A stretch of DNA of 64,000 bases from Pseudobdellovibrionaceae bacterium (GTDB taxonomy: Bacteria; Bdellovibrionota; Bdellovibrionia; Bdellovibrionales; Bdellovibrionaceae): positions 11,393 through 75,392 of the forward strand of contig JBDHWW010000012.1 of NCBI GenBank assembly GCA_039810425.1, written 5' to 3'. This document shows positions 13,920-28,265 of the stretch, piece after piece; the first letter of the stretch is position 1; each line of letters opens with the position of its first letter. Below the pieces are notes generated by a model, which ran no database searches, was not told the origin of the DNA, and worked only from the letters and a program-made list of their open reading frames with translations. A program made the position numbers and the translations under genes.

Positions 13920-16900
13920 TCAATGCGTGATCTCTTTTTCAGAAAGCGGCATCGGCTTCACGTCTTCGCCGAGAATTTTGAGAGCTTCCTGTAAATCCTT
14001 TTCGTGGCGATGACCCTCCAGACGATGAGTCAAGCTATAGGCACAAGGGACCACCAACAAAGTTAAGAAGGTCGATACAGTCACACCTCCCACTACCGCA
14101 ATACCCATTGGACGAATGACCTCAGAGCCCGAGCCTGTTGCAAAGGCTTCAGGAATGGCGCCCGCAATTGTTGCAATCGACGTCATCAAAATCGGGCGCA
14201 GACGTAAGGGACAGGCCTCGAGCAAGGCCTCGGTGACTTCTAAACCTTCTTTGCGTTTACGATTGGTAAAGTCCACAAGCAGAATCGAGTTCTTTTTTAC
14301 GATCCCCATCAGCAGCAACATGCCGATCAAGCTGTAGATGTTGATAGACGTATCCGTCAACCACATCCCGAACAAAGCGCCTGTGATCGAAAAAGGTAAG
14401 GCCAGCAAAATCACCACCGGATGCAAGAAACTATTGAATTGGCTCGCAAGAACCATGTAGGCGACAAAAATCCCCAGCACCAATGCCACCATCAAACTGC
14501 GGAAGGATTCGGTGAAAGCCTGCGAACTTCCCGACAGCAGCAGGTGATAACCCGGCGGCAACACTTCTTTTCCGAGTTTTTCAACGTAGGCCATCACCTC
14601 GGCCTGAGACTTTCCTGGGACAAAGTTCCCGAAAACACCGATGGCCCGTTCCCGGTTGTAGCGAGTGATGGTTAAGAGCGTGCTGCTATCTTTGATTTTT
14701 ATCACCGCCGCCAAAGGCACGATTTCCCCTTGGGCATTGCGCACCCAGATTTTTTTAATATCGTCGGCGGTCAGATTTTCCCCGGGATCGAGCTTGATCT
14801 GGATGTCATCGCGGTGACCGGCAGCATCGGTGTATTTATTCGGCAGAAGCTTCACCCCGCCCACCATGGCGGCCACCGCATTTGAAATGGTTGTAACACT
14901 CACTCCCCGCGTCGCGGCCGCATCGCGATCCGGAATGATTTCGGACTGAGGCATATTCGGATTGTAATCACTATCCACATCCGCCATGTATCCAGAAGCT
15001 ACAAGACGCTTACGCATTTCTAAAGAAAGCTCCGCAAGTTTATTCCAATCCGGGCCTTGCAGCTCAAACTCGACCGGATAGCCGCGCTGGGCGCTAAAAC
15101 CAGTGAGTGACAAATCGAGAATCGCCACCCGCTGAACGCCTTGGATTTTTGCAAGCTCTGCGCGCAGATACCCCATAAACTCTTGCTGCGTAGGACGCTT
15201 CTTAAACGGCGCCGCCACGGGCCGATCGCCGGGATCCTTCATTGTGATAAATGAAATCCCCTGATTTACCAAGCCACCGCCAAAGCCCCCCACCGCCACG
15301 TAGTAAGCATCGATTTCCGGGCGGGATTTATACAGAACTTCGGCCCGGCGAAAGACCGCGTCAGTGTAAGAAATCGACGAACCCATTTCAGTGTAAAGTG
15401 TTACCAGGAAACGGCTTTGATCTTGTGGCGGCAAAAATTCTTTTCTTAGGCCGCCGACCGTGAGCAGCGACACGATAAAAAACCCGGTCGCAATAGCCAA
15501 CACCGTCCATCGCCAATTCAAACAAAGACGCAAGATTTTTTTATAAAAGCCCGAGAGGAATACCGTCCCCTGACTGACTTTATGGGTGACCACGTTCTCA
15601 CGCCCGACCTGCAGAAACTGCGAACAGCGCATGGGCGCTAAGGTCAGGGCCTCGAGCAGCGATAGTGAAACGGCGGTCGCCATCGCAATACCGAATTGAA
15701 AGAAGAACTTACCAATTATCCCCTGCATGAAGACTACAGGTACGAAAATCGCAAGAATCGCCAAAGAAGCCGCCACTGCGGCGCCAGTGATTTCGCGGGC
15801 CCCGACAAGGGCCGCCAACACACGGTTTTTACCTTCTTCAAAGTGGCGCGTGATATTCTCTAGCACCATGATGGCATCATCCACCACGATTCCCACCGAA
15901 AGCGACAGCGCCATCAAAGTGAAGGTGTTGATCGTAAAACCGAGAAAATGCAAAATTAAAAACGAACCGACCAATGAGACCGGGATCGCCAAGATCACGT
16001 TAAAGGCCGAACTGAGGTTTCCAAGGAACAGATAACACACAAGCGCTGTCAGCAATACGGCCATTCCCAGAGTGCGCAACAGCTCCGCAATGGCGTCTTG
16101 GATAAACACCGTCGTATCGGCAACGACCGCCATCTCGGTCCCCTTAGGCAAGGACGGAGCCAGCTGTTTCAGTTTCTTTTTCACGTTGTCGCCGATTTCA
16201 ACCGCGTTGGTCCCATGCTGTTTGATAACCCCCACCCCGATCGTCGGCTGAATCCCGTCATAGCGGGAAATTCTGCGGACTTCATCAGTGGCCTCTTCGC
16301 AGGTCGCGACCTGTTTAATGCGGATTTGCCGCCAAACGGGCAAACCCAAGCGAGTCGGAATCGTGAGGTTGTTACATTGCTCAGCGTTTGTAAACTCAGA
16401 CTGCAGCCGGATGAAGTTTTCTTTCTCGCCTAAGTCCTGATAACCCGTTGGAACGAGCTGATGCTCATTGTTAATCGCCGCGATAACATCATCGGAAGTG
16501 ATTTCCAGATCATACATTTTTTTTGAATGCAGCCAGATTCTCATCTGCGGATCGACATAGCCTCCGATTGCCACGTCCCCCACTCCGGTGATGGTTGTGA
16601 TGGTGTCTTTCAAATGATCGCGCACAAACAACGCCAGTTCGCGCAATGTGCCCGTGTGGCTATAAACCGCCGTCCACATAATCGGCTGATCGTTAGGATT
16701 GGTTTTCGTGATGATCGGTGGATCAATGGTTTGTGGTAAGTTCTTTTGTGCCTGCGAGATCTTGGTTTGAACTTGTTGAAGGGCTACATTGATATCCTGA
16801 TCCAAATGGAATTGAATCACAATCTGTGTCGAGCCCAACTGCGAGGCCGACTGCACGTGATCAACCCCGTCGACACTCATCACGGCATCTTCGATCACGT

Positions 16901-17093
16901 CGGCTACGGAGGACTCCATCACATCGGGCGAAGCGCCAGCCCAAGTAACCGTCACGGTCACCACTGGAAAATCCACATCTGGCAATTGGCTGATCCCCAT
17001 TAAAAAATACGAGATCGTACCAAAGACTAAAAGCCCCACCATCAGCATCCACGCAAAGACAGGCCTTTTAATCGAGATGTCTGAAAGAGTCAT
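13920..17093 (-). CDS. RND efflux permease (AcrB/AcrD/AcrF family), copy 1
   Basis: 1057 aa; RPVFAW N-terminus, GIVVDDAIMVLENI, GIVKKNSILLVDF, RLRPILMTS. Confidence 0.95.
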   Translation of the reverse strand: MTLSDISIKRPVFAWMLMVGLLVFGTISYFLMGISQLPDVDFPVVTVTVTWAGASPDVMESSVADVIEDAVMSVDGVDHVQSASQLGSTQIVIQFHLDQDINVALQQVQTKISQAQKNLPQTIDPPIITKTNPNDQPIMWTAVYSHTGTLRELALFVRDHLKDTITTITGVGDVAIGGYVDPQMRIWLHSKKMYDLEITSDDVIAAINNEHQLVPTGYQDLGEKENFIRLQSEFTNAEQCNNLTIPTRLGLPVWRQIRIKQVATCEEATDEVRRISRYDGIQPTIGVGVIKQHGTNAVEIGDNVKKKLKQLAPSLPKGTEMAVVADTTVFIQDAIAELLRTLGMAVLLTALVCYLFLGNLSSAFNVILAIPVSLVGSFLILHFLGFTINTFTLMALSLSVGIVVDDAIMVLENITRHFEEGKNRVLAALVGAREITGAAVAASLAILAIFVPVVFMQGIIGKFFFQFGIAMATAVSLSLLEALTLAPMRCSQFLQVGRENVVTHKVSQGTVFLSGFYKKILRLCLNWRWTVLAIATGFFIVSLLTVGGLRKEFLPPQDQSRFLVTLYTEMGSSISYTDAVFRRAEVLYKSRPEIDAYYVAVGGFGGGLVNQGISFITMKDPGDRPVAAPFKKRPTQQEFMGYLRAELAKIQGVQRVAILDLSLTGFSAQRGYPVEFELQGPDWNKLAELSLEMRKRLVASGYMADVDSDYNPNMPQSEIIPDRDAAATRGVSVTTISNAVAAMVGGVKLLPNKYTDAAGHRDDIQIKLDPGENLTADDIKKIWVRNAQGEIVPLAAVIKIKDSSTLLTITRYNRERAIGVFGNFVPGKSQAEVMAYVEKLGKEVLPPGYHLLLSGSSQAFTESFRSLMVALVLGIFVAYMVLASQFNSFLHPVVILLALPFSITGALFGMWLTDTSINIYSLIGMLLLMGIVKKNSILLVDFTNRKRKEGLEVTEALLEACPLRLRPILMTSIATIAGAIPEAFATGSGSEVIRPMGIAVVGGVTVSTFLTLLVVPCAYSLTHRLEGHRHEKDLQEALKILGEDVKPMPLSEKEITH

Positions 17094-17099
17094 AGGTTT

Positions 17100-18458
17100 C
17101 TACTTTGCTCGGCAAAGCTCCATCAAAGGAACAAGTTTATTGGGATGAACTATACGACGGATCACCCCACCGCCGCCGATTTGTGAAACTTTACACGCGC
17201 GAATACCGGCGAACTTGTCTAAAATCAAAGAACGATTCAGTGTCACACGCTGCGAGTCCAGATCGATCTGCGCCTGTAAGCGCGTCACGGATGCCTGGGC
17301 CAGTGAGTTCGCCGCAGTCAGAACATGCAGAAGGTCCGTGGTTCCTAAAGTATACTGAGTCAAGTACGCGTTATAGGCCCTCTTGAAATTGTTTTCGGCG
17401 TCCGTGGCTGACGCCAGTTGCAGTTTCGTCGAACGCACCGAGGCCAGTGCGGATTCAAGAATCTGCGCTTGCTCTTGCACCACCGCCTGACGGCGCAAGT
17501 ACATGTCTTGAATGTTGAGATTGCTCAAGGTGATGTTAGGAAAGTAACCAAAGCCAAAATTAAACGACCCTTCCCCGGCAACTCTTCCGAAGGAAACTCC
17601 TCCGCCTTGGCCACTGCTTTGGGCGCTGACCGTGGCACCGTTAAAGAAACTAAAAACTTTGCTCCACTTATCTGCCTTGGCTGCTAAAATGAGCGCATCA
17701 ATTTGCGCCATTTCCGGCGCTTTCTTTAAAACTTCCGGCAACAAGCTCTCGGCGTCGGCGTTCTCATATCGGTCAACCTGGTCCGGATGAAGGAGATCAA
17801 AACGGATGTCAACACTCAAATCAAGCCCCAGCATTTGTCGAATGGAAGCCCGTTCTTGCGCGATCAACTCTTCAAACTGCCCCACTTGGGTTTTCATCAT
17901 TGAGGTCTGCGCTTGAGCCGAATAGAGGTCCGTGATCGGGCGAAGCCCCAGCTTCACCGCCAAATCGACGTTATTTTGAATGTCTAAAAGATTTTTATAC
18001 TGAGAGTACAAAACGTCTTGCAAAGCAAAATCACCAACAATGGTCATGTAAACCGAATAGGCCGAAGCATATTCGTTGAGTTGCAAAATATAGTAGGACT
18101 TCACTTCAGCATTCAGCAAGTACTGGCTTTCGCGCAGATTGATCCAATTGCTAGGTAGAAGGAATGGCAACAAAAACACCGCAGAGGCGAGATAAAAACC
18201 GCCGCCACTGATTCCCGCGCCAAGATTCAACGAAGGCAATAACTGTGCCCTGGCAAGGTCGACATTCACTTTTGCCTTGTAAACATTATTGAGCTCTTGA
18301 AGCAGATTGTTGTTCTGCGCCAGAAGTAAAGTTTGTAAGGATTGTGGATTAACCCGCACGGTTTTCACCGCTGCCGGCGTCATCTCGTCAACTGCAAAAA
18401 CGGGTTGCACTCCCAAACCCAAAGCCAATACACACGGAATGATTCTTCTCTTAAACAT
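17100..18458 (-). CDS. TolC-family outer-membrane protein (divergent)
   Basis: ATG 18458 after GGGGG; signal peptide; ARAQLLPSLNL and YTLGTTDLLHVL OEP-repeat motifs. Confidence 0.8.
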   Translation of the reverse strand: MFKRRIIPCVLALGLGVQPVFAVDEMTPAAVKTVRVNPQSLQTLLLAQNNNLLQELNNVYKAKVNVDLARAQLLPSLNLGAGISGGGFYLASAVFLLPFLLPSNWINLRESQYLLNAEVKSYYILQLNEYASAYSVYMTIVGDFALQDVLYSQYKNLLDIQNNVDLAVKLGLRPITDLYSAQAQTSMMKTQVGQFEELIAQERASIRQMLGLDLSVDIRFDLLHPDQVDRYENADAESLLPEVLKKAPEMAQIDALILAAKADKWSKVFSFFNGATVSAQSSGQGGGVSFGRVAGEGSFNFGFGYFPNITLSNLNIQDMYLRRQAVVQEQAQILESALASVRSTKLQLASATDAENNFKRAYNAYLTQYTLGTTDLLHVLTAANSLAQASVTRLQAQIDLDSQRVTLNRSLILDKFAGIRACKVSQIGGGGVIRRIVHPNKLVPLMELCRAK

Positions 18459-18589
18459 ATCGCCCCCGCGTTGGAGATTGGGACGATTTTCCATCACTGT
18501 CAAATCCGGCTTATATCCTGAAAACGCGAAGAAATAGTGACGTCTTGCAATTACAAAGTTGTGCTAGCGTGAACCCACAAGGACATTAC

Positions 18590-19903
18590 ATGAAGAGCTT
18601 TTTCGTCTTAAGCATGCTTTTTCTATCGGTGGCCCGAGCCCAAGCACCGGTACAGGACCTGAGCATTCACGATGCGGTTCAGCTTGCTATACAAAACAAT
18701 CCTGCTTTCCGTGAGTCTGTCGAGAAAATCACACAGGCTGAGACGGAAGTTCCTCTGGCCAGAGCCCTGATTTTTCCCACTCTCGCAGCGGTTGGGGATG
18801 CACAGCGGGTTAAAGACTCCAATCTCGGTCAGAATCCGCGCTTTGACGGCAAACCTTTCAATCAATATGACGCGTCCTTAAAGTTGACACAAATTATTTT
18901 TCAAATGGGAACTTTGTCGGGCATCAGTGCGGCACAAAAAGATGCGAGCATTAGCAAACTCAATGCGCAAATATCAGCCCGCAACCTGATGAACTTAACA
19001 ATTCAAGCTTACTACCAGGTGGTGCTGAGCTCACGCAATATTGAAACTCTTCTCCGTCAACAACGGATCGTAAGGGAATCCCTGGATGTTGCCCAACACA
19101 GGGAGCGTAACGGTCGTGGTCAGGTCCTAGATGTCCTGCAAGTAAAAACGCAGCTGGCACTCCTTGACGGCCAGATCGCCACGGCCCGCAATCAACTGGC
19201 AATTGCGGTTGCGAGCCTCGCTAATACCATCGGAGGAGCCACGCAAAACATGATTCGCGTCAAAGATCATCTTGAGGCTCCGGATATTCCTGATGTCGAT
19301 CAGGATGTGGATCTAAAGAACTACACAATTCCTGAAATTGAATCGGATCTTCTTTCAATCCAACGTCTTGATGACCAACGGCAGGTGATGTGGGGGCAAA
19401 ACCTGCCTAATATAAGTCTTTTCGGTAACTATAATTTTACCAACTACAAGCAATCCGATCTCTTCGATGACAGCGCGAACTCTTGGAGCTTTGGCTTGCA
19501 GCTGACGATTCCCCTTTTCTCGGGCCTCTCGACGATTTATCAAAACCGCTCTTTACTGTCACAGCGCCTGCAATTGGAGTTCGATAAGAAAAATGTCGAA
19601 AACCAAGTGGCCTATCAACAGATCACCAGCCGCAAAAACCTTGAAACCGCCAAAGATTCCATTTCCACCGGCATCGACGCTCTTAAGTTGGCGGAGGCTT
19701 CCTCGAATGAGGCCCGCCGTAACTACCGTAATGCAACGATCGACTTCGTTCAGCTTTTAACGGTGGAACAATCCTTTGTTCAAGCAGAGCAAACTCTCAA
19801 CTCCTCTCGCTATAATTACATTACGGCATTGGCAAATTACTATGCGGCCTCAGGGCAGGACATGGCCAAGCTTGTGGCGCTGTTAGAAAGGACCAACAAA
19901 TGA
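18590..19903 (+). CDS. TolC-family outer-membrane efflux protein
   Basis: signal peptide; AIQNNP, FPTL, LQLTIPLFSG, YRNATIDFVQLL OEP-repeat motifs. Confidence 0.92.
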   Translation: MKSFFVLSMLFLSVARAQAPVQDLSIHDAVQLAIQNNPAFRESVEKITQAETEVPLARALIFPTLAAVGDAQRVKDSNLGQNPRFDGKPFNQYDASLKLTQIIFQMGTLSGISAAQKDASISKLNAQISARNLMNLTIQAYYQVVLSSRNIETLLRQQRIVRESLDVAQHRERNGRGQVLDVLQVKTQLALLDGQIATARNQLAIAVASLANTIGGATQNMIRVKDHLEAPDIPDVDQDVDLKNYTIPEIESDLLSIQRLDDQRQVMWGQNLPNISLFGNYNFTNYKQSDLFDDSANSWSFGLQLTIPLFSGLSTIYQNRSLLSQRLQLEFDKKNVENQVAYQQITSRKNLETAKDSISTGIDALKLAEASSNEARRNYRNATIDFVQLLTVEQSFVQAEQTLNSSRYNYITALANYYAASGQDMAKLVALLERTNK

Positions 19904-20616
19904 CGGGCATGAAGTCCTTACTGATATTCTCGTTATGGATCGTGGGATCAAGGACGCTGGCAGCGACTAAAACACCCACAAACATCGTCGTGCCCATTCC
20001 GCAAAGCGAGATCGTCTATCCGGAAAGTTTGGCGACTCCACCGCCGCCGATCACAAACTATTTTTTTCAGCTTCAAGTCTCGTCATGGGCTCCGAACCAG
20101 ATCCTCCAGCCCAGTTACCTGCCAAACACAACGGACTTCAAAAGCATTTCACCGCAGTTTTCCCTGCTGATGGGAAGCCCCCTGAGCGAAGGTGAGTCCG
20201 TTCGCTGGACCACGCTCATGGGTGTTTCCTATGTTGAAATGCAACGCTCAGGAACTCTCGGTTATGACGTGAATGCGTTTACGGTGTCGCAAAATCTAAA
20301 TCTGTATCAGATACAACTCGGAGTGGAAGCGACTTTTAAAAAAATATTTAAAGATCAACTGCATCCTCTATTCGGCCTGACTTTAAATCCGGCTTGGAGC
20401 CAAGCCCCCGCCTCGGAGTTTAACGATGGCATTAGTCAAGTGGATTGGCTCGTGCGTGTGATGGCCGGTGTTTCCTGGAGCTTTCCTAAATTTGCGGCTT
20501 CCATCGGCCTTACAGACACGTCTCTTTTATTTGGGGCGGAAGCCACTAAAAGTATCAGTGCCGAGGACTACTCCGGATCGGGATTGTGGATCGCGACCCG
20601 GATGAATTGGCACTAA
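19900..20616 (+). CDS. hypothetical exported protein, predicted outer-membrane beta-barrel
   Basis: ATGA-type overlap with tolC; signal peptide; amphipathic strands; C-terminal LWIATRMNWH. Confidence 0.6.
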   Translation: MTGMKSLLIFSLWIVGSRTLAATKTPTNIVVPIPQSEIVYPESLATPPPPITNYFFQLQVSSWAPNQILQPSYLPNTTDFKSISPQFSLLMGSPLSEGESVRWTTLMGVSYVEMQRSGTLGYDVNAFTVSQNLNLYQIQLGVEATFKKIFKDQLHPLFGLTLNPAWSQAPASEFNDGISQVDWLVRVMAGVSWSFPKFAASIGLTDTSLLFGAEATKSISAEDYSGSGLWIATRMNWH

Positions 20617-20640
20617 AGAACTAATTATAAGGAGTCTTTT

Positions 20641-22011
20641 ATGAAAACCCTTCTCTTCATTCTCCTCGCCTCGGCCCTAGGGCTGCAGGCTTGCAGCAAA
20701 GATCAATCTTTGGATGATTACAAACAAACCCGCCTCGATCAGAATTTAGCTCAGCTCCAAGCCGTTCAGGGACGTTATTCAGGCATCATGACTTCCAAGC
20801 GAACTGGAAAAACTCTGGGGGCTTTGCAGTTAACTTTGAAAGCCACCACGCAAGTTCAACCGAGCCCCGATGAGTCGAAAGCCACCGCCCAGCCGATACT
20901 CGTTGCCAATGTCGACTTTCAAGGTGCCTCCCGCATTTCAGTCGTCGCACAGAATAGTTATTTTGATCCCAATAGCGGTAAGTTCCAGGCCAATATCCCC
21001 GTTCAAGAAACGGATGCCTCTGGACAAACGCAAACTGAAAACATCAGTATCACGGGTGCTATACAAAACGGCGCCCTCTCAGGAACTCTGGAGGCCGCCG
21101 GCTATTCAGATTATGGCAGCACCTTTCTGTTAGCAAGAGACGGCCGGGACATTGGATCGCTTGCCGGCGAATCCGATATCGACCCGAGCACGGTGTTTAC
21201 GCAAAAAAACTATGTGGGCACGACCGACTTTGCCAATGGGACATCAAAGGCAGTGGTGATGATTTTACTAAAGCCGCCGACGACTTCGGAAATTGACTTT
21301 TTAAGTCTGCTGACACCTGAACGCGCACTTCAGATCAATCTCAACTACGGAAATGGTGCCCATGTTATTTTTAACAACGGCACCTGGGATCAGCGCACAG
21401 GAAGCCTCACTGGCCAAACGCCCCTGTCGCGCACTCTGATTCCTGGTGACAACACGAGCACCCAAACGGTCACCTTGTACTTGAATCCTTGTCAGATGTC
21501 CCAAGACACGACTCGCGTTGATTGCACGATCTCGACCAGTAGCTCACAAGGCCCTGTCGCGCATTTACAGCTGCAAGCAAGCTCCACTTCGAACTCAGAA
21601 CCGCCCGCAGATAAAAATGGCCAAATCGATGCGATCATTCGCGTCTATAACGGCACCGCCCAGTTAACTCCGGGAGCTTCCTGGATTCCAGCGACGATGA
21701 ATGTCGTCGATCCGGCGCAAACACGCATGCAAGAGATCACGGATCTGCTCTTTCCTCCGTCAGAGAAAATCTTGCAGGTGTCTATTTCGTTTCCGGGAGC
21801 TCAAGTCGGCATCAGCTTTCCGGCAACAAAGTGGGATGTGAACCGGCAAACGTTGGATGGGAACCAGACCATGGTTGTCGATAATCAGTCCAACAACCTT
21901 TCGCTGTCCTGTCAGAACTTTGGCTTCTCGGCCAGTCAATACTCTTTTACTTGTACGTACATAAGCAGTCTCAGGAGCACTTATGTCCAATTTAAGTTTG
22001 CCTCCAATTGA
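20641..22011 (+). CDS. lipoprotein with three tandem beta-rich repeat domains
   Basis: AAGGAG SD; lipobox LQAC; internal repeats Y-x-G...(F/W)D. Confidence 0.75.
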   Translation: MKTLLFILLASALGLQACSKDQSLDDYKQTRLDQNLAQLQAVQGRYSGIMTSKRTGKTLGALQLTLKATTQVQPSPDESKATAQPILVANVDFQGASRISVVAQNSYFDPNSGKFQANIPVQETDASGQTQTENISITGAIQNGALSGTLEAAGYSDYGSTFLLARDGRDIGSLAGESDIDPSTVFTQKNYVGTTDFANGTSKAVVMILLKPPTTSEIDFLSLLTPERALQINLNYGNGAHVIFNNGTWDQRTGSLTGQTPLSRTLIPGDNTSTQTVTLYLNPCQMSQDTTRVDCTISTSSSQGPVAHLQLQASSTSNSEPPADKNGQIDAIIRVYNGTAQLTPGASWIPATMNVVDPAQTRMQEITDLLFPPSEKILQVSISFPGAQVGISFPATKWDVNRQTLDGNQTMVVDNQSNNLSLSCQNFGFSASQYSFTCTYISSLRSTYVQFKFASN

Positions 22012-22074
22012 GGAAGACCGATTTGGCATTTTGACATTGATGATCAGGATCATCCTGCGCACGATACGCGGCAT

Positions 22075-25000
22075 ATGAATATCTCAGAAATTTCCATCAA
22101 TCGGCCCGTCTTTGCCTGGATGCTTATGTTCGGGATGATCATCTTTGGGGCGATCTCTTTTAGCCGCATGGGGATCAGCCAGATGCCGGATATCAACTTT
22201 CCGGTGGTGAACATCTCGCTTCGTTTAGACAATGCGGCCCCCGAAATGATGGAGACCAATGTCGTTGATGTCATCGAAGATGCCGTTATGGGAATCGAAG
22301 GGCTGACGCGAGTCACCTCGAGTGTCAGCCAAGGGGTTGCCAACATCACTTGTGAGTTCAAGCTTGATCACGATATCGATGTCGCCCAGCAGGAAGTGCA
22401 AAACCGCATCACCCAAGTTCAAAATCTTTTGCCTTCCGCTTTGTATCCTCCGGTGATTACTAAAACGAACCCTGAGGACCAGCCTATCTTGTGGGTGATG
22501 GTGACGGCCGATGACCAGATTCCCCTTTATCAAGAGATGATCTATGCCAGAAACGACCTCAAGGATCAGCTTTCGACTCTTGCTGGCGTCGGCAACATTG
22601 TTCTGCAAGGTTATGTTGATCCGAATCTTCGTGTCTGGCTGGATCCTAAGAAGCTGCGTGCCCAAGATCTGACTGCCAGTGACATCGTCAATGCCATTCA
22701 GAATGAGCAGATCGAGCAACCGGCTGGACGCCTTGAGGCCGCCGCCACTGAAACCAATATCCGTGTCCTCGGTGAAGCGGCCAGTCCCGAAGACTTCGGT
22801 AAGATTCGCATCAACACCCGCTCGGGTGCGCCTAATTATAAACCGCAAATCATTGCCGATGTCGCAAGAATTGAAGAGGGTCTTTCCGATATACGGGCGA
22901 CCTCGCGCTTTGACGGCAAACGCACCGTGGGCCTTGGCATCGTCAAACAGCGTGGCGCCAATGCGGTGGCGGTTCAGAAACTGGTTCGCGACCGCGTGGA
23001 GCTGATGAGGAAAGGACTTCTACCTGGGTATCACCTCGATATCAATCTCGATACGACGACCTTCATCCGAGAGTCGGTCAACGAACTCAATACGACGCTG
23101 CTGCTTTCAGCTTTGCTGACATCAGTGGTTTGTTTTTTCTTTCTCGGCTCTTGGTCCTCGACAATCAATGTTCTTTTGGCGATTCCAACGTCGATTGTCG
23201 GCGCCTTTATCTTTTTGTACTTCTTTGGTTTTACCCTGAATTCGTTTACGCTGCTGGGACTGAGTCTTGCGATCGGCATTGTCGTTGATGACGCCATCAT
23301 GATGCTTGAGAACATCGTCCGTCATTTTGAAATGGGCAAAGACCGGCGCCAGGCCGCTTTAGATGGCTCAAAGGAAATCACCTTTGCCGCGATTGCCACA
23401 ACGATTGCGATCGCGGCGATTTTCATTCCGGTGGTGTTCATGCAAGGTGTTGTCGGCCGGTTTTTCTACCAGTACGGCATCACCGCCACCGTGGCGGTTT
23501 TTTTGTCTTTGCTTGAAGCTTTGACACTAACACCCATGCGCTGCTCGCGCTTTTTGCATTCTTCTAAAATAGAAAAACCCGGTTGGATCACTCATCACAT
23601 GGATCGCTTCATGAGCTGGCTTACGGCCATTTACCGCCACGCTCTTGAGTGGGCTCTGCGCCAGCGCGCGATTGTCGTGGGCGCCACTGTCCTCATCTTT
23701 AGCCTGTCGATGGGATCGCTTTATTTTCTAAAAAAAGAGCTCATTCCCCCGCAAGATCAGGCGTTGTTCTTGTTAAACCTGAAAACTCCGGTCGGCACCT
23801 CTCTTGAAGCCACGGACAAAGTCTTTCGGCAAGCCGAAGAGTATCTGAAAAAACAGTCCGAGGTTTCAGACAACTACGCCACCGTTGGCAACTACGAAAA
23901 CAACAACGTCGTGAACGCCGGAACGATCTATGTCATCCTGAAAGACAAAAAACATCGCGACCTCAGCCAGCGCGAAATGATGGATAAGGTCCGTCAAGAT
24001 CTCGGCCAAATCCTGCCACGGGATACAGAGATCTTTACTCAAGACTTGTCGCTGACGGGATTTAGCGCTTCCCGCGGGTACCCCATCGAGTTTGTGCTGG
24101 TCGGACCTGACTGGAATAAACTGGCATCGCTTTCAAAAGAGTTTGTCGAAAAATTCCGTGCGACCGGACTCATCGAGGACTTAAACTCGGACTTTCAGGA
24201 GGGAATGCCGACTGTTTGGCTGACTCCTGACAGAGATCGCGCCGCCACTCACGGCGTAAGCACTTCTGAGATCGGGCAAGAAATCAGCACGATGATCGGT
24301 GGTTACCTTTTCAGTGCCAACACTGAATATCCTAAGAGCGGTCATCGCTACAATATCCGTGTCCGTGCCGAACCGGACTACACGCAGAACGTGCAGGATT
24401 TTAATTACGTTCTTTTGCGGAATAACCGCGCGAACTCGGAGCTTGTTCCGGTGCCGAACACGGTGGACATCACCCCTGTCGAGGGACCACAGCTGATCTC
24501 GCGGGTGAATCGCTTTAGGGCCGTGCCGTTCTATGGGAATATCAAAGGCGATGAGTCCCAAAAAGACGTGCTTGAAGCCGCCATGAAAATCGCCAAAGAC
24601 ATACTACCGCCGGGCTACCATTTGGATATCACCGGGAACGCAGCCGCTTTTCAAGAGGCCTTCAGCAGTTTGATCTTTGCCCTTATTCTTGGCGTGATTG
24701 TCGCCTATATGGTTCTGGCCTCGCAGTTTAATAGCTTTATTCACCCTGTGACCGTCTTAATGGCGCTGCCTTTTAGTTTGTCGGGGGCCTTGCTCGCACT
24801 TTACATCAGTCATCAATCACTGAGTCTTTTTAGTATGATCGGGTTGGTTCTGCTGATGGGGATTGTAAAGAAGAACTCGATCCTGCTTGTGGACTTTACC
24901 AATCGGCAGCGCCACGAGGGACTTTCACCCCATGATGCTCTTCTGAAAGCCTGCCCGATCCGCCTGCGACCGATTCTCATGACCTCCGTGGCAACGGTCG

Positions 25001-25191
25001 CCGGCGCTTTGCCGGCCGCCCTGAACTTCGGGGCTGGTGCCGAAACCCGCGTGCCCATGGCGATCTCGGTCATTGGCGGCGTTTCCGTGTCGACGCTGCT
25101 GACTTTATTTGTCGTGCCGTGCGTATACAGTTACTTTACCCGCCTGGAGCGTCCCGAGATAACCGAAGCTCCTGAAGGAGGCCACTCGTGA
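22075..25191 (+). CDS. RND efflux permease, copy 2
   Basis: 1038 aa; GIVVDDAIMMLENI, GIVKKNSILLVDF, RLRPILMTS. Confidence 0.95.
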   Translation: MNISEISINRPVFAWMLMFGMIIFGAISFSRMGISQMPDINFPVVNISLRLDNAAPEMMETNVVDVIEDAVMGIEGLTRVTSSVSQGVANITCEFKLDHDIDVAQQEVQNRITQVQNLLPSALYPPVITKTNPEDQPILWVMVTADDQIPLYQEMIYARNDLKDQLSTLAGVGNIVLQGYVDPNLRVWLDPKKLRAQDLTASDIVNAIQNEQIEQPAGRLEAAATETNIRVLGEAASPEDFGKIRINTRSGAPNYKPQIIADVARIEEGLSDIRATSRFDGKRTVGLGIVKQRGANAVAVQKLVRDRVELMRKGLLPGYHLDINLDTTTFIRESVNELNTTLLLSALLTSVVCFFFLGSWSSTINVLLAIPTSIVGAFIFLYFFGFTLNSFTLLGLSLAIGIVVDDAIMMLENIVRHFEMGKDRRQAALDGSKEITFAAIATTIAIAAIFIPVVFMQGVVGRFFYQYGITATVAVFLSLLEALTLTPMRCSRFLHSSKIEKPGWITHHMDRFMSWLTAIYRHALEWALRQRAIVVGATVLIFSLSMGSLYFLKKELIPPQDQALFLLNLKTPVGTSLEATDKVFRQAEEYLKKQSEVSDNYATVGNYENNNVVNAGTIYVILKDKKHRDLSQREMMDKVRQDLGQILPRDTEIFTQDLSLTGFSASRGYPIEFVLVGPDWNKLASLSKEFVEKFRATGLIEDLNSDFQEGMPTVWLTPDRDRAATHGVSTSEIGQEISTMIGGYLFSANTEYPKSGHRYNIRVRAEPDYTQNVQDFNYVLLRNNRANSELVPVPNTVDITPVEGPQLISRVNRFRAVPFYGNIKGDESQKDVLEAAMKIAKDILPPGYHLDITGNAAAFQEAFSSLIFALILGVIVAYMVLASQFNSFIHPVTVLMALPFSLSGALLALYISHQSLSLFSMIGLVLLMGIVKKNSILLVDFTNRQRHEGLSPHDALLKACPIRLRPILMTSVATVAGALPAALNFGAGAETRVPMAISVIGGVSVSTLLTLFVVPCVYSYFTRLERPEITEAPEGGHS

Positions 25192-28100
25192 GCCTCTCAG
25201 AAATTTCCATTCGACGGCCGGTTTTTGCCTGGATGTTGATGGCGGCCATCATTCTCTTCGGCGTTCTCTCATTTAAAAAGCTCGGCATCAGTCAGTTTCC
25301 TGACGTCAACTTTCCGGTGGTCAGTGTTTCGCTCAGTTTAAATGGCGCGGCCCCCGAAGTGATGGAAAGCCAGGTGCTGGATCCGCTGGAAGACTCCATC
25401 ATGCAAATCGACGGCATTCGCAGCGTGACCTCAGCGGCCCAACAGAGCTCCGCTTCGATCGCCGTTGAGTTTGAGCTCAATCAAGATATCGATAAAGCGA
25501 TGCAGGATGTGGAAAATCACATCAATCAGGTTTTGAATCTTTTGCCGAAAGACCTGCAGCCGCCGCTGGTTCGTAAAACCAACCCCGAAGATCAACCAAT
25601 TCTCTGGGTGGCCCTGACCAGCGACGATCCAAAAACCAAGCCGATTGATATGATGATCTATGCGCGGAACTATCTCTATGACCAGTTGGGGGTTTTACCG
25701 GGGGTTGGTGATATTGCTCTCGGCGGCTATGTGGCACCGGCGCTGCGGGTGTGGGTCAATAATAATAAACTTCGTAAATTCAATCTTACTTCAGATGATC
25801 TGATTCAAGCGATTGAAACTGAGCACATCGAAGTCCCCGTGGGCACGATTCAAGATTCGCAGGAAGAATACGGCATTCGCTTTTTGGGCGAAGCAAAGAC
25901 GCCGCAAGAGTTCGGCGAAATCCGTATCCAGAACCGCGCGTCTCAAGGACCAAACTATCGCCCGACACCGCTGAAAGAGGTCGGTGAAATCGAAGAAGGT
26001 CTTGCCGATGTTCGCAAAATTTCGCGCTTCAACGGGCTTCGCGCGATTGGGCTTGGCATTATTAAGCAACATGGAGCCAATGCCGTTGAGGTCGCTGACG
26101 CCGTGAAGGCAAAAGTAGCCGCTCTTCAATCAGAACTCCCGGCCCACTTTCAAGTTTCAGTCCGTTCAGACAATACCCGCTTTATCAAGCAGTCCGTGAA
26201 TGAGCTGATGTTCGCACTTTCCCTGTCCGCGATTCTGACGTCCATCGTCTGCTATCTGTTTTTAGGCTCATGGACTTCGACGATGAATATTCTTATGGCA
26301 ATTCCGACGTCTATTATCGGAGCCTTCACAGCTTTGTACTTTTTTGGTTTTACTCTGAATACATTTACCTTGCTAGGACTCAGCCTGGCGATCGGCATTG
26401 TGGTTGATGATGCAATTATGATGCTTGAGAATATCGTCCGGCACCGCCAAATGGGCCAAGGAAAAATCACAGCCGCCATCAATGGCTCACGCGAAATCAC
26501 CTTTGCTTCGCTGGCTGCGACTCTGGCGATTGCCGCGATTTTTTTGCCCGTGGTCTTTATGAAAGGAATTGTCGGGCGGTATTTTCTTCAGTACGGAATC
26601 ACCGTGACAGTCGCCGTGTTTTTATCACTGCTTGAAGCCCTGACCCTGACGCCGATGCGATGCTCAAGGTATCTGCGAGTCACCGATCACGAAACCGGCC
26701 TTGCGGGCTTTGTCGACAGGATCTTCCAACGGCTCGCTTCACTCTATGAAAAACTCTTACGCGTTCTTCTACACCACCGCTGGAAAACCGTGACGATCGC
26801 GACCTTGGTGTTTTTCGCAAGCATTCTGCTGGCAAAAATACTCCCGTGGGAAATGATGCCGGCCCAAGATCAATCGATGTTCCTCCTGCGCTTTAAACTC
26901 CCGGTAGGAACCGCTTTAGAAGTCACCAACGATAAAATCAAGCAGGTGGAAAGTTATCTTCTGAAATTCCCCGAAATCAACGGCGTGTATAGCGCCGTGG
27001 GCGGCTTCGGTGGCGACGCCGTCAATCAGGCGAATGCTTTTGCCACGATGGTGGATCAAAAAAAAAGACATGTTTCACAACAGCAGATGATCAACAGGGT
27101 TCGCCGTGATCTTAAAAAGCTGTTCCCTGAAATGCAGACGATTGTGCAGGATTTGTCTTTGCGTGGTTTTGCTTCGACTCGTGGTTTTCCCGTGGAGTTT
27201 ATTATTCAAGGACCCGACTGGAACCGGCTGACACAAATCACGAACGACTTGATGGAAAAAATCCGTGATTCCGGCAAAGCCACCGATGTGAACACCGATG
27301 TCCAAGGCGGTATGCCCGAATTGCAGATCACGCCCGACCGGCAAAAGCTCGCTGAACATGGCATCAGTGTGAACACGGTCACAAAAGTTCTGAACGCCCT
27401 TATCGGCGGCCAGGTATTCACCCGCACGGCCGAATACACCAAAGCCAATCATCGTTATGAAGTCGAACTGAGGCTCGTTGCGGATGAACGTACGAAAATG
27501 CCGGACCTCAACCTCATCGAACTTCGCAACAGCTTCGGCCAAACCGTGGCTCTTCCGAAGTTAGTCAAGCAAGATGTCCAACCGAGCCTGATGCTCATTT
27601 CGCGCCTCAACCGGGCTCGAGCTATTACGGTTTACGCAAACCCCACGCAAGGACATTCACAAGAAGAGGTGCTTAAATACATCGAGGACCTTGCCCGCAA
27701 AACTTTACCTCCGGGATATACCATCAAGATGGTGGGAAGCTCGCAAAGTTTTCGTGAATCGTTTGTCAGTCTTGTCTACGCGATGATCCTCGGAATTATC
27801 GTCTCGTACATGGTGCTTGCAAGTCAGTTCAACAGCTTTCTACATCCCTTCACGGTGTTGCTGGCCCTGCCATTTAGTATCTCGGGAGCCTTTTTAGGTC
27901 TTTTAGTTTTTCACCAGTCCATTAACATTTACAGCTTGATCGGCTTTATCCTGCTTATGGGGATTGTGAAGAAGAACTCGATTCTGCTTGTGGATTTTAC
28001 CAATCAAGTCCGCCGTGAAGGAGCTTCGGTGAATGAGGCCCTGTTAAAGGCCTGCCCGATTCGTTTAAGACCCATCCTGATGACATCCATTGCGACCGTC

Positions 28101-28265
28101 GCCGCAGCCGTCCCCGAAGCCTTCGCTGTTGGGCCCGGATCTGAAACCACGATTCCGATGGCCGTGGCCATTATCGGCGGCGTTGTCGTTTCCACGACAC
28201 TAACCCTGTTTGTGGTGCCTTGCTTTTACAGCCTCGCAAGCAGGCTCGAAAGACCACATAAATAA
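25188..28265 (+). CDS. RND efflux permease, copy 3
   Basis: 1025 aa; GTGA overlap with copy 2; same proton-relay motifs. Confidence 0.95.
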   Translation: MSLSEISIRRPVFAWMLMAAIILFGVLSFKKLGISQFPDVNFPVVSVSLSLNGAAPEVMESQVLDPLEDSIMQIDGIRSVTSAAQQSSASIAVEFELNQDIDKAMQDVENHINQVLNLLPKDLQPPLVRKTNPEDQPILWVALTSDDPKTKPIDMMIYARNYLYDQLGVLPGVGDIALGGYVAPALRVWVNNNKLRKFNLTSDDLIQAIETEHIEVPVGTIQDSQEEYGIRFLGEAKTPQEFGEIRIQNRASQGPNYRPTPLKEVGEIEEGLADVRKISRFNGLRAIGLGIIKQHGANAVEVADAVKAKVAALQSELPAHFQVSVRSDNTRFIKQSVNELMFALSLSAILTSIVCYLFLGSWTSTMNILMAIPTSIIGAFTALYFFGFTLNTFTLLGLSLAIGIVVDDAIMMLENIVRHRQMGQGKITAAINGSREITFASLAATLAIAAIFLPVVFMKGIVGRYFLQYGITVTVAVFLSLLEALTLTPMRCSRYLRVTDHETGLAGFVDRIFQRLASLYEKLLRVLLHHRWKTVTIATLVFFASILLAKILPWEMMPAQDQSMFLLRFKLPVGTALEVTNDKIKQVESYLLKFPEINGVYSAVGGFGGDAVNQANAFATMVDQKKRHVSQQQMINRVRRDLKKLFPEMQTIVQDLSLRGFASTRGFPVEFIIQGPDWNRLTQITNDLMEKIRDSGKATDVNTDVQGGMPELQITPDRQKLAEHGISVNTVTKVLNALIGGQVFTRTAEYTKANHRYEVELRLVADERTKMPDLNLIELRNSFGQTVALPKLVKQDVQPSLMLISRLNRARAITVYANPTQGHSQEEVLKYIEDLARKTLPPGYTIKMVGSSQSFRESFVSLVYAMILGIIVSYMVLASQFNSFLHPFTVLLALPFSISGAFLGLLVFHQSINIYSLIGFILLMGIVKKNSILLVDFTNQVRREGASVNEALLKACPIRLRPILMTSIATVAAAVPEAFAVGPGSETTIPMAVAIIGGVVVSTTLTLFVVPCFYSLASRLERPHK

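Follow-up and report, generated by a model that had tools for sequence, protein, structure and literature searches.

Three RND permeases, two TolC channels, and no adaptor gene at a locus of a Pseudobdellovibrionaceae bacterium

Genes of the locus

We analyzed a 64,000-nucleotide stretch of DNA (the window) from a Pseudobdellovibrionaceae bacterium (GenBank assembly GCA_039810425.1, contig JBDHWW010000012.1, positions 11,393 to 75,392 of the forward strand), in which positions 13920..28265 encode resistance-nodulation-division (RND) permeases and TolC-type outer membrane channels with no gene for the membrane fusion protein (MFP), the adaptor of tripartite RND pumps. Seven open reading frames (ORFs) were confirmed in this region. 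Three encode full-length RND permeases and two encode TolCs that are unlike each other; the others encode a small barrel protein and a three-domain lipoprotein. ORF coordinates and sequence agree with the two divergent units, sharing a 131-bp intergenic region, that the initial annotation of this DNA had described. The locus is one composite member of a widespread, apparently undescribed adaptor-less RND-TolC family, combined with a Bdellovibrionota accessory module.

RND1 (13920..17093, minus strand, 1057 aa), RND2 (22075..25191, plus strand, 1038 aa), and RND3 (25188..28265, plus strand, 1025 aa, overlapping RND2 by 4 bp) each matched the ACR_tran model from end to end (879, 913, and 919 bits, respectively), and all three carry the proton-relay motifs VVDDA, KKNSI, and RLRPILMTS (in RND1, D405-D406, K933/934, and the R964-T971 region). 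With a full ACR_tran match, the Asp-Asp pair of transmembrane helix 4, the Lys of helix 10, and the Arg/Thr of helix 11, they are RND permeases of the AcrB/MdtB-like type, and the earlier statements that they are full length and retain their relay residues were borne out. To call them closely paralogous was too strong, as their pairwise identity is 47-53% and they represent three old sub-clades. RND1, which is 96% identical to the copy in the closest relative (genome G005), is separate in the tree from RND2 and RND3, whose clades (support of 1.0 each) are sisters. Genes of these two clades are paired in loci L010, L013, L016, L073, L074, L075, and L167 as well as in the window. The heteromeric RND envisaged initially is favored insofar as RND2 and RND3, like MdtB and MdtC, are tandem genes conserved as a pair, but a single three-RND machine is not supported.

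Both TolCs matched the OEP model, and BLAST gave no match of one to the other. TolC1 (17100..18458, minus strand, ATG at 18458 and stop at 17100; 452 aa; 61 bits) was modeled with a pLDDT of 82.6 and, in its predicted form, matched TolC/OprM at a TM score of ∼0.65; the predicted barrel strands are short and of low confidence. TolC1-type sequences make up a clade of their own (n = 25, support of 0.999) and constitute the divergent TolC that accompanies the lipoprotein module. The C-terminal extension of TolC1 (window 17100-17250) contains two cysteines that are conserved in the family consensus, possibly marking a disulfide-bonded extra domain. A second TolC1-type gene in the same genome (C62:13998-15455) has neither an RND nor an MFP gene nearby. 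TolC2 (18590..19903, plus strand, ATG at 18590; 437 aa; 169 bits) is of the TolC type found in RND::TolC fusions, although its grouping with six fusion C-termini had weak support (0.56); its length is normal for TolC by comparison with structures in the PDB, and it is likely to be the exit channel. The operon-type TolCs formed a clade of 48 with a support of 1.0, in a tree that includes one sequence (C11:69967-71448) without an OEP match. A lipobox was present in 3 of 90 TolCs.

The lipoprotein (20641..22011, plus strand, 456 aa) has a lipobox with Cys18, and its model, made from an alignment of 58 relatives (pLDDT of 92.5), predicts one 17-residue helix (residues 24-40) and three closed 8-stranded barrels, with no α-helical hairpin. 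Its repeats, proposed in the initial annotation, are real according to hhalign (probability of 99% for domain 2 versus 3 and ∼50% for domain 1 versus the others), and the number of tandem domains in the family, judged by length, runs from one to four or more. The search for relatives returned 315 sequences at E ≤ 0.001. No Pfam family was matched at E ≤ 0.01 among the 58 members, no Pfam or NCBIfam model matched the window lipoprotein or barrel, and no sequence relative of the lipoprotein was found in the PDB. Fold searches returned generic up-down barrels: the top Foldseek match, TbpB, had a TM score of 0.15, and VIA placed unrelated barrels above it (best Z of 10.8 over ∼100 residues; range of 6.6-10.8 across unrelated proteins), while Atlas matches were ≤ 0.90, with low recognition. 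No MFP appeared among the fold-search rows, an absence that alone does not exclude one. As the model has no hairpin between lipoyl halves and the 58 members no Pfam match, the lipoprotein was rejected as an MFP; it did not model as the canonical adaptor that would have undone the initial annotation. Because no Asp follows the Cys in any of 69 lipobox matches (78 homologs, crude regular expression), the protein fits outer membrane sorting.

The predicted small outer membrane β-barrel (19900..20616, plus strand, 238 aa) resembles unnamed outer membrane β-barrel clusters (Atlas feature score of 0.96), the nearest named family being PF13505, with no Pfam match among 33 members. Its consensus includes a conserved N-terminal VEVPxS peptide, and a word search gave 4 close relatives. 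Prediction of a complex of the lipoprotein (residues 19-320), TolC2, and the barrel scored 0.00, with controls not folded, a score that counts neither for nor against an interaction.

The divergent gap between the TolC1 and TolC2 start codons (18459..18589, 131 bp) contained no sigma-70 consensus sites above chance. The locus is flanked by smc and ftsY on the left and by ppdK and glyS on the right, and the GC content is flat over the window. No sign of misassembly was seen: run X1, possibly the window's own source and not an independent check, has contigs that cover the region in two pieces at even depth. Consistent with the reported absence of an AcrA-like MFP, none of 12 proteins from the locus and its surroundings matched an MFP or regulator family, and a genome-wide TIGR01730 search gave no match on the window's contig. 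The accompanying statement that there is no regulator holds locally only, as a MarR-like profile matched at 20 places in 19 of 65 related lipoprotein loci, including that of G005.

An RND subfamily and its missing adaptor genes

A profile of 19 members delimited the RND subfamily (1358-1797 bits for members versus ≤ 855 for others), which was monophyletic by FastTree (128/128, support of 0.999). It occurs in at least 276 of 401 Bdellovibrionota genomes (a lower bound, with two candidates scored per genome), including 30/30 of genus g10. The best 76 of 815 confirmed stretches from a GTDB scan were taken as the basis of all counts with this denominator; they span Bdellovibrionota, Elusimicrobiota, Omnitrophota, spirochaetes, FCPU426, and a few others. 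TolC lay within 3 kb of the subfamily RND in 61 of these loci and in 40 of the 46 with full flanks. An MFP gene stood beside the RND in two (L146 and L086), neither clearly belonging to it: the first precedes the gene of a major facilitator superfamily (MFS) transporter, and the second comes after another, different TolC. A Pfam scan that covered 130 of 134 flanking ORFs on the same strand recovered the same two MFPs together with many MarR/TetR regulators, and the flanks of the 76 loci share no conserved unknown gene. The operons are often headed by a MarR or TetR gene, as in stress-regulated efflux. RND::TolC fusions of 1440-1545 aa occur within the subfamily at L018, L019, L022, L024, L077, L095, and L138; L145 seems to repeat the L022 locus, and such a fusion is also present at G095:C11. 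As a baseline, 94% (3032/3239) of the RNDs in 282 plant-associated bacteria adjoin an adaptor gene (bioRxiv 10.64898/2026.02.24.707749, which in its section 17 leaves variants 4 and 5 undescribed). Absence of an adaptor characterizes the RND subfamily as a whole and is not peculiar to the window locus.

The window's genome (99.9% complete) contains 11 full RND genes, and since only the one on contig C30 adjoins a full MFP gene, doing without an adaptor is a habit of this genome. The other five full MFPs accompany MFS or ATP-binding cassette (ABC) transporters, these partners being assigned from the sequences of the neighbors. The genome-wide check for orphan MFPs proposed in the initial annotation therefore yielded none of full length, with all six adjoining their own MFS, ABC, or RND transporter. 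Adaptor reduction seems to be lineage-wide. At three metal-type RNDs of this genome, the place of CusB/CzcB holds only secreted, often His-rich proteins of 134-148 aa (C15:35519-35941, C28:17007-17453, and C45:13671-14075 and 17238-17660); the C28 protein weakly matches the MFP C-terminal domain (E of 1e-4), and no homologs of these short proteins were found in the genome beyond the metal-pump loci. A second RND group, scoring 772-855 bits on the subfamily profile, also has no MFP and comprises TetR-tolC-RND (C27:17058-22258), tolC-RND (C34:28203-32815), and an RND followed by a gene for a 215-aa barrel-like protein (C23:47859-51736). The RNDs on C59 and C23 are solo.

TIGR01730 was searched in 80 genomes, of which 53 were phylum genomes with a subfamily RND (picked partly as closed and partly for few pumps) and 27 were reached through other subfamily loci. 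There was no match in 13 of the 53 and 0 of the 27, leaving an MFP somewhere in 40/53 and 27/27, or 67/80 in total. For 10 of the 13, PF16576 and PF13437 (E ≤ 0.01) were unmatched as well; the remaining three had partial matches (G034) or marginal ones of 31-33 residues (G050 and G072). The ten MFP-free genomes, which are 93-99% complete, unclosed (20-250 contigs), and picked partly for few pumps, have 2-6 RND matches each, and tolC lies directly upstream of an RND in the 5/5 that were checked. In the closed genome G145, no MFP was located within 70 kb of any of the 7 RNDs, among the matches listed.

The TolC-barrel-lipoprotein module and its Bdellovibrio bacteriovorus counterpart

The lipoprotein profile matched 67 of the 401 Bdellovibrionota genomes, and 65 loci were examined after exclusion of the weakest matches and of a few contigs that were very short. 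Final counts came from six-frame scans, with MFPs sought by a home-made profile from seven MFPs. Within 6.5 kb of the lipoprotein gene, TolC was present in 63 loci and a barrel homolog in 48; an RND of some kind occurred in 39 and one of the subfamily in 32, whereas this profile detected an MFP in 0/65. Gene order varies, and related loci hold 0 to 2 RND copies. The locus of G005, a 94% identical relative, is arranged as RND1-TolC1 divergent from TolC2-barrel-lipoprotein, followed by a MarR-like gene and without an RND2/3 ortholog; L013 and L016 have TolC2-barrel-lipoprotein-RND2-RND3 without RND1. By this comparison the window locus is a composite, the sum of these two layouts. The seven genes as a fixed unit were ruled out by G005 and by the related loci with 0-2 RNDs, so that in the synteny check suggested earlier the parts recur together elsewhere but the whole set is not conserved. 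The block common to the window and G005 ends at 22070, where the MarR-like gene of G005 overlaps the end of the lipoprotein gene, and window positions 22012-22074 give a faint remnant match (E of 0.005).

The module was also found in CusA-type operons (L057 and L060 are above the TIGR00914 cut-off) and with other RNDs (L051 and L062), with no MFP nearby, which argues against its being cargo and for a channel accessory. Four loci (L056, L057, L059, and L060) combine a sensor kinase and regulator, two lipoprotein-family genes, a barrel-like gene, a CusA-type RND, a small His-rich gene, and TolC; this metal-efflux reuse of the module likewise has no MFP nearby. The lipoprotein gene was within 6 kb of only 2/76 subfamily RND loci. 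The module is thus missing from most pump loci and therefore is not a general adaptor, contrary to the novel adaptor role suggested in the initial annotation. The lipoprotein and barrel are likely to be outer membrane accessories of the TolC channel and not a substitute adaptor.

In genus g10 (Bdellovibrio), all 10 loci examined around the RND have it divergent from a barrel-TolC-lipoprotein operon. Two loci (L152 and L161) encode proteins identical to CAE78935, CAE78933, CAE78932, and CAE78832 of B. bacteriovorus ATCC 15356, which by annotation, order, and length are Bd1001, Bd0999, Bd0998, and Bd0888. Bd0998-Bd1001 thus resembles the window locus in RND subfamily and in this divergent layout, and Bd0887-Bd0888 provides a second copy as plain tolC-RND. 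Bd0998-Bd1001 differs in belonging to a paralogous branch, the ortholog of which in the window's genome is split; in genus g1 this Bdellovibrio-type system consists of barrel-TolC-lipoprotein at C11:66818-69974 and the RND alone at C59:7516-10668. The B. bacteriovorus data bear on the window by analogy only.

All six genes (Bd0998-Bd1001 and Bd0887-Bd0888) are growth-phase induced (PMC3627812). In a proteomic time course (PMC12546842; the log2 scale of its values was inferred from the paper's 3.5-fold figure), RND Bd1001 and TolC Bd0999 vary 1.2-1.3-fold over the cycle, whereas lipoprotein Bd0998 varies 7.3-fold and barrel Bd1000 6.2-fold, both peaking at 3 h and falling by 6 h; the correlation between the latter two, computed by us from the supplement, is r = 0.97. 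Such a transient peak would fit an assembly or anchoring factor, although this is the weakest step of our argument, and a role of the operon at exit is the authors' suggestion only. Transposon sequencing (Tn-seq) gave fitness values of 1.2-2.9 for the four genes in the screened strain, like those of their neighbors (PMC6561027; tags mapped by gene order), and a need for the system in predation was rejected on these values. Literature searches turned up Bd0998 and Bd1000 in no source other than the proteomics paper and its preprint, the data found on the B. bacteriovorus systems being limited to expression and Tn-seq, and the available part of PMC2797640 contains nothing on these genes.

Proposed coupling of permease and channel

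The permeases retain a full docking domain. Its N-terminal tip hairpin (consensus RGGxPNY) exceeds that of the four solved pumps compared by 3 residues, and its C-terminal tip hairpin is VRNNR; by analogy with AcrB, we take these two hairpins to be the top of the permease. Across 92 dereplicated sequences, conservation is ∼90% at R249, G251, and N783 but averages 0.57-0.58 over the docking domain, which suggests a direct permease-TolC interface. The reading that we prefer is that these are two-part, proton-driven RND-TolC efflux pumps, held together by direct contact of permease and channel, with the lipoprotein and barrel serving as outer membrane accessories; we judge its chances to be evenly balanced. 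Direct docking of the RND on TolC, considered by itself, could equally be right or wrong. In such pumps, RND2 and RND3 would assemble, like MdtB/MdtC, into a heterotrimer that uses TolC2, RND1 would form its own trimer with TolC1 or TolC2, and the RGGxPNY and VRNNR hairpins would seal against the TolC tips. Substrates would be hydrophobic or amphiphilic small molecules. More tentatively, the lipoprotein and barrel might assist TolC assembly or anchoring while new envelope is built and then be turned over. A bolder version, somewhat doubtful in our estimate, is that a multi-phylum RND-TolC family dropped its adaptor and spans the envelope tip-to-tip, as a general Bdellovibrionota design, shared by several RND lineages and in some genomes leaving no adaptor of any kind, in which the lipoprotein-barrel module builds or gates the channel during progeny division.

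Several observations weigh against two-part pumps. A review describes the adaptor as mandatory for pump activity (PMC8277102), no added domain able to bridge the gap was found in RND or TolC, and the conservation of the tips could be structural. TolC is not nearby in 15/76 subfamily loci (6/46 with full flanks), and the subfamily RND has been lost or moved in about half of the lipoprotein loci. An MFP exists somewhere in most subfamily genomes, the ten without one are fragmented and were not chosen at random with respect to pump number, and all three MFP models would miss an adaptor that is truncated or has diverged far. The profile link between the Bdellovibrio lipoprotein and the window family is weak (E of 2e-4), and that between the barrels is negligible (E of 0.013).

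The alternative that survives best, although we consider it unlikely, is that the permeases act alone, moving substrates from the inner membrane to the periplasm or handing lipid to a carrier, while the TolCs are loosely coupled pores or serve other systems. RNDs of the MmpL/HpnN type work without TolC, and the full-flank loci without TolC and the solo RNDs on C59 and C23 would fit this explanation. It accords poorly with the tolC neighbor in 61/76 loci across phyla, the fusion of TolC to the RND in several genomes, the well-supported operon-type TolC clade of 48, and the retention of a full docking domain with conserved tips. Ranked after it, and again improbable, is an adaptor borrowed from elsewhere, be it the recognized MFP of a different system or one that has diverged beyond detection. 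In E. coli, AcrD works with AcrA, and 67/80 subfamily genomes could supply an MFP; the short neighbors of CusA pumps, one with the weak MFP C-terminal match, also indicate that cut-down adaptors exist in the lineage. Yet each of the six full MFPs in the window's genome sits beside its own transporter, ten genomes have RNDs but no MFP match, and the short proteins are confined to metal-pump loci, with no conserved unknown gene around the 76 subfamily loci.

Less probable still is that, wherever it is present, the lipoprotein acts together with the barrel as a non-homologous adaptor, hung from the outer membrane to bridge TolC to the permease. Its company of TolC in 63/65 loci and of an MFP in 0/65, its association with three different RND lineages (none with an MFP nearby), and its one to four or more tandem domains are what such a bridge might show. 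The lipoprotein is near only 2/76 subfamily loci, however, and in 67/401 genomes against 276 for the RND, the level of Bd0998 changes 7-fold against a flat background of pump and channel, and its model has no coiled-coil hairpin. The weakest alternative, a dedicated envelope-building exporter with the lipoprotein or barrel as cargo or as a surface-exposed product timed to progeny division, draws on the likeness of the barrels to the surface lipoproteins TbpB and fHbp, the 3-h peak and 6-h fall of Bd0998 and Bd1000 with the exit role suggested by the authors (PMC12546842), and the fixed layout in 10/10 Bdellovibrio loci, but is countered by the generic fold matches, the same module in CusA-type metal-efflux operons, the predation fitness left by insertions in all four genes (PMC6561027), and MarR regulation, which suggests a chemical-stress response.

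Searches of the open literature brought up neither an adaptor-less tolC-RND family nor the module; subscription papers, including Barabote et al. 2007, may bear on novelty. A phylogeny of RND permeases treats MFP and permease as co-transcribed, with no mention of Bdellovibrio in its available text (PMC10872679). Two-part pumps would touch an old dispute in the efflux field, namely whether RND and TolC can touch and work without the adaptor that current structures make the seal. Natural two-gene operons and RND::TolC fusions offer test material for that question, and Bd0887-Bd0888 and Bd0998-Bd1001 sit in a non-pathogenic, genetically tractable predator studied as a living antibiotic. A two-part pump, if true, would be a simpler object for structure and for how TolC opens. 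The lipoprotein and the barrel each represent a family without a name, linked to TolC in 63/65 loci.

Compared with the canonical tripartite RND pump, the locus has the TolC and not the adaptor gene. It shares with AcrAB-TolC and MexAB-OprM a full-length proton-relay RND, a TolC of normal length, and, across the subfamily, frequently adjacent MarR/TetR genes; it differs in that the adaptor gene is missing at the locus and undetectable genome-wide in ten genomes, and in the longer, conserved N-terminal tip hairpin. The RND2/RND3 pair recalls MdtABC-TolC of E. coli and MuxABC-OpmB, in which old tandem paralogs are retained as a pair, and MdtB (PDB 9lyq) was the best solved match to the permease profile. 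The window RNDs scored only 557-592 bits on the MdtB and MdtC models, however, far under the cut-offs of 1584 and 1774, the locus has no MdtA-type adaptor, and most subfamily members are a single RND behind tolC. BesABC of Borrelia burgdorferi, a working RND pump whose adaptor has no TolC-gripping α-hairpin, is a precedent for another kind of RND-TolC coupling, although BesA retains lipoyl, barrel, and membrane-proximal domains (PMC3807786), whereas the window locus is without the whole adaptor. The E. coli lipoprotein YbjP binds a non-lipidated TolC and is dispensable for efflux in standard tests (PMC13082787, PMC13095208), and the TolCs of the loci analyzed here also mostly have no lipobox; the window lipoprotein family differs from YbjP in having no DUF3828 (58 members), a predicted three-barrel fold, co-encoded tolC and barrel genes, and TolC binding that is putative.

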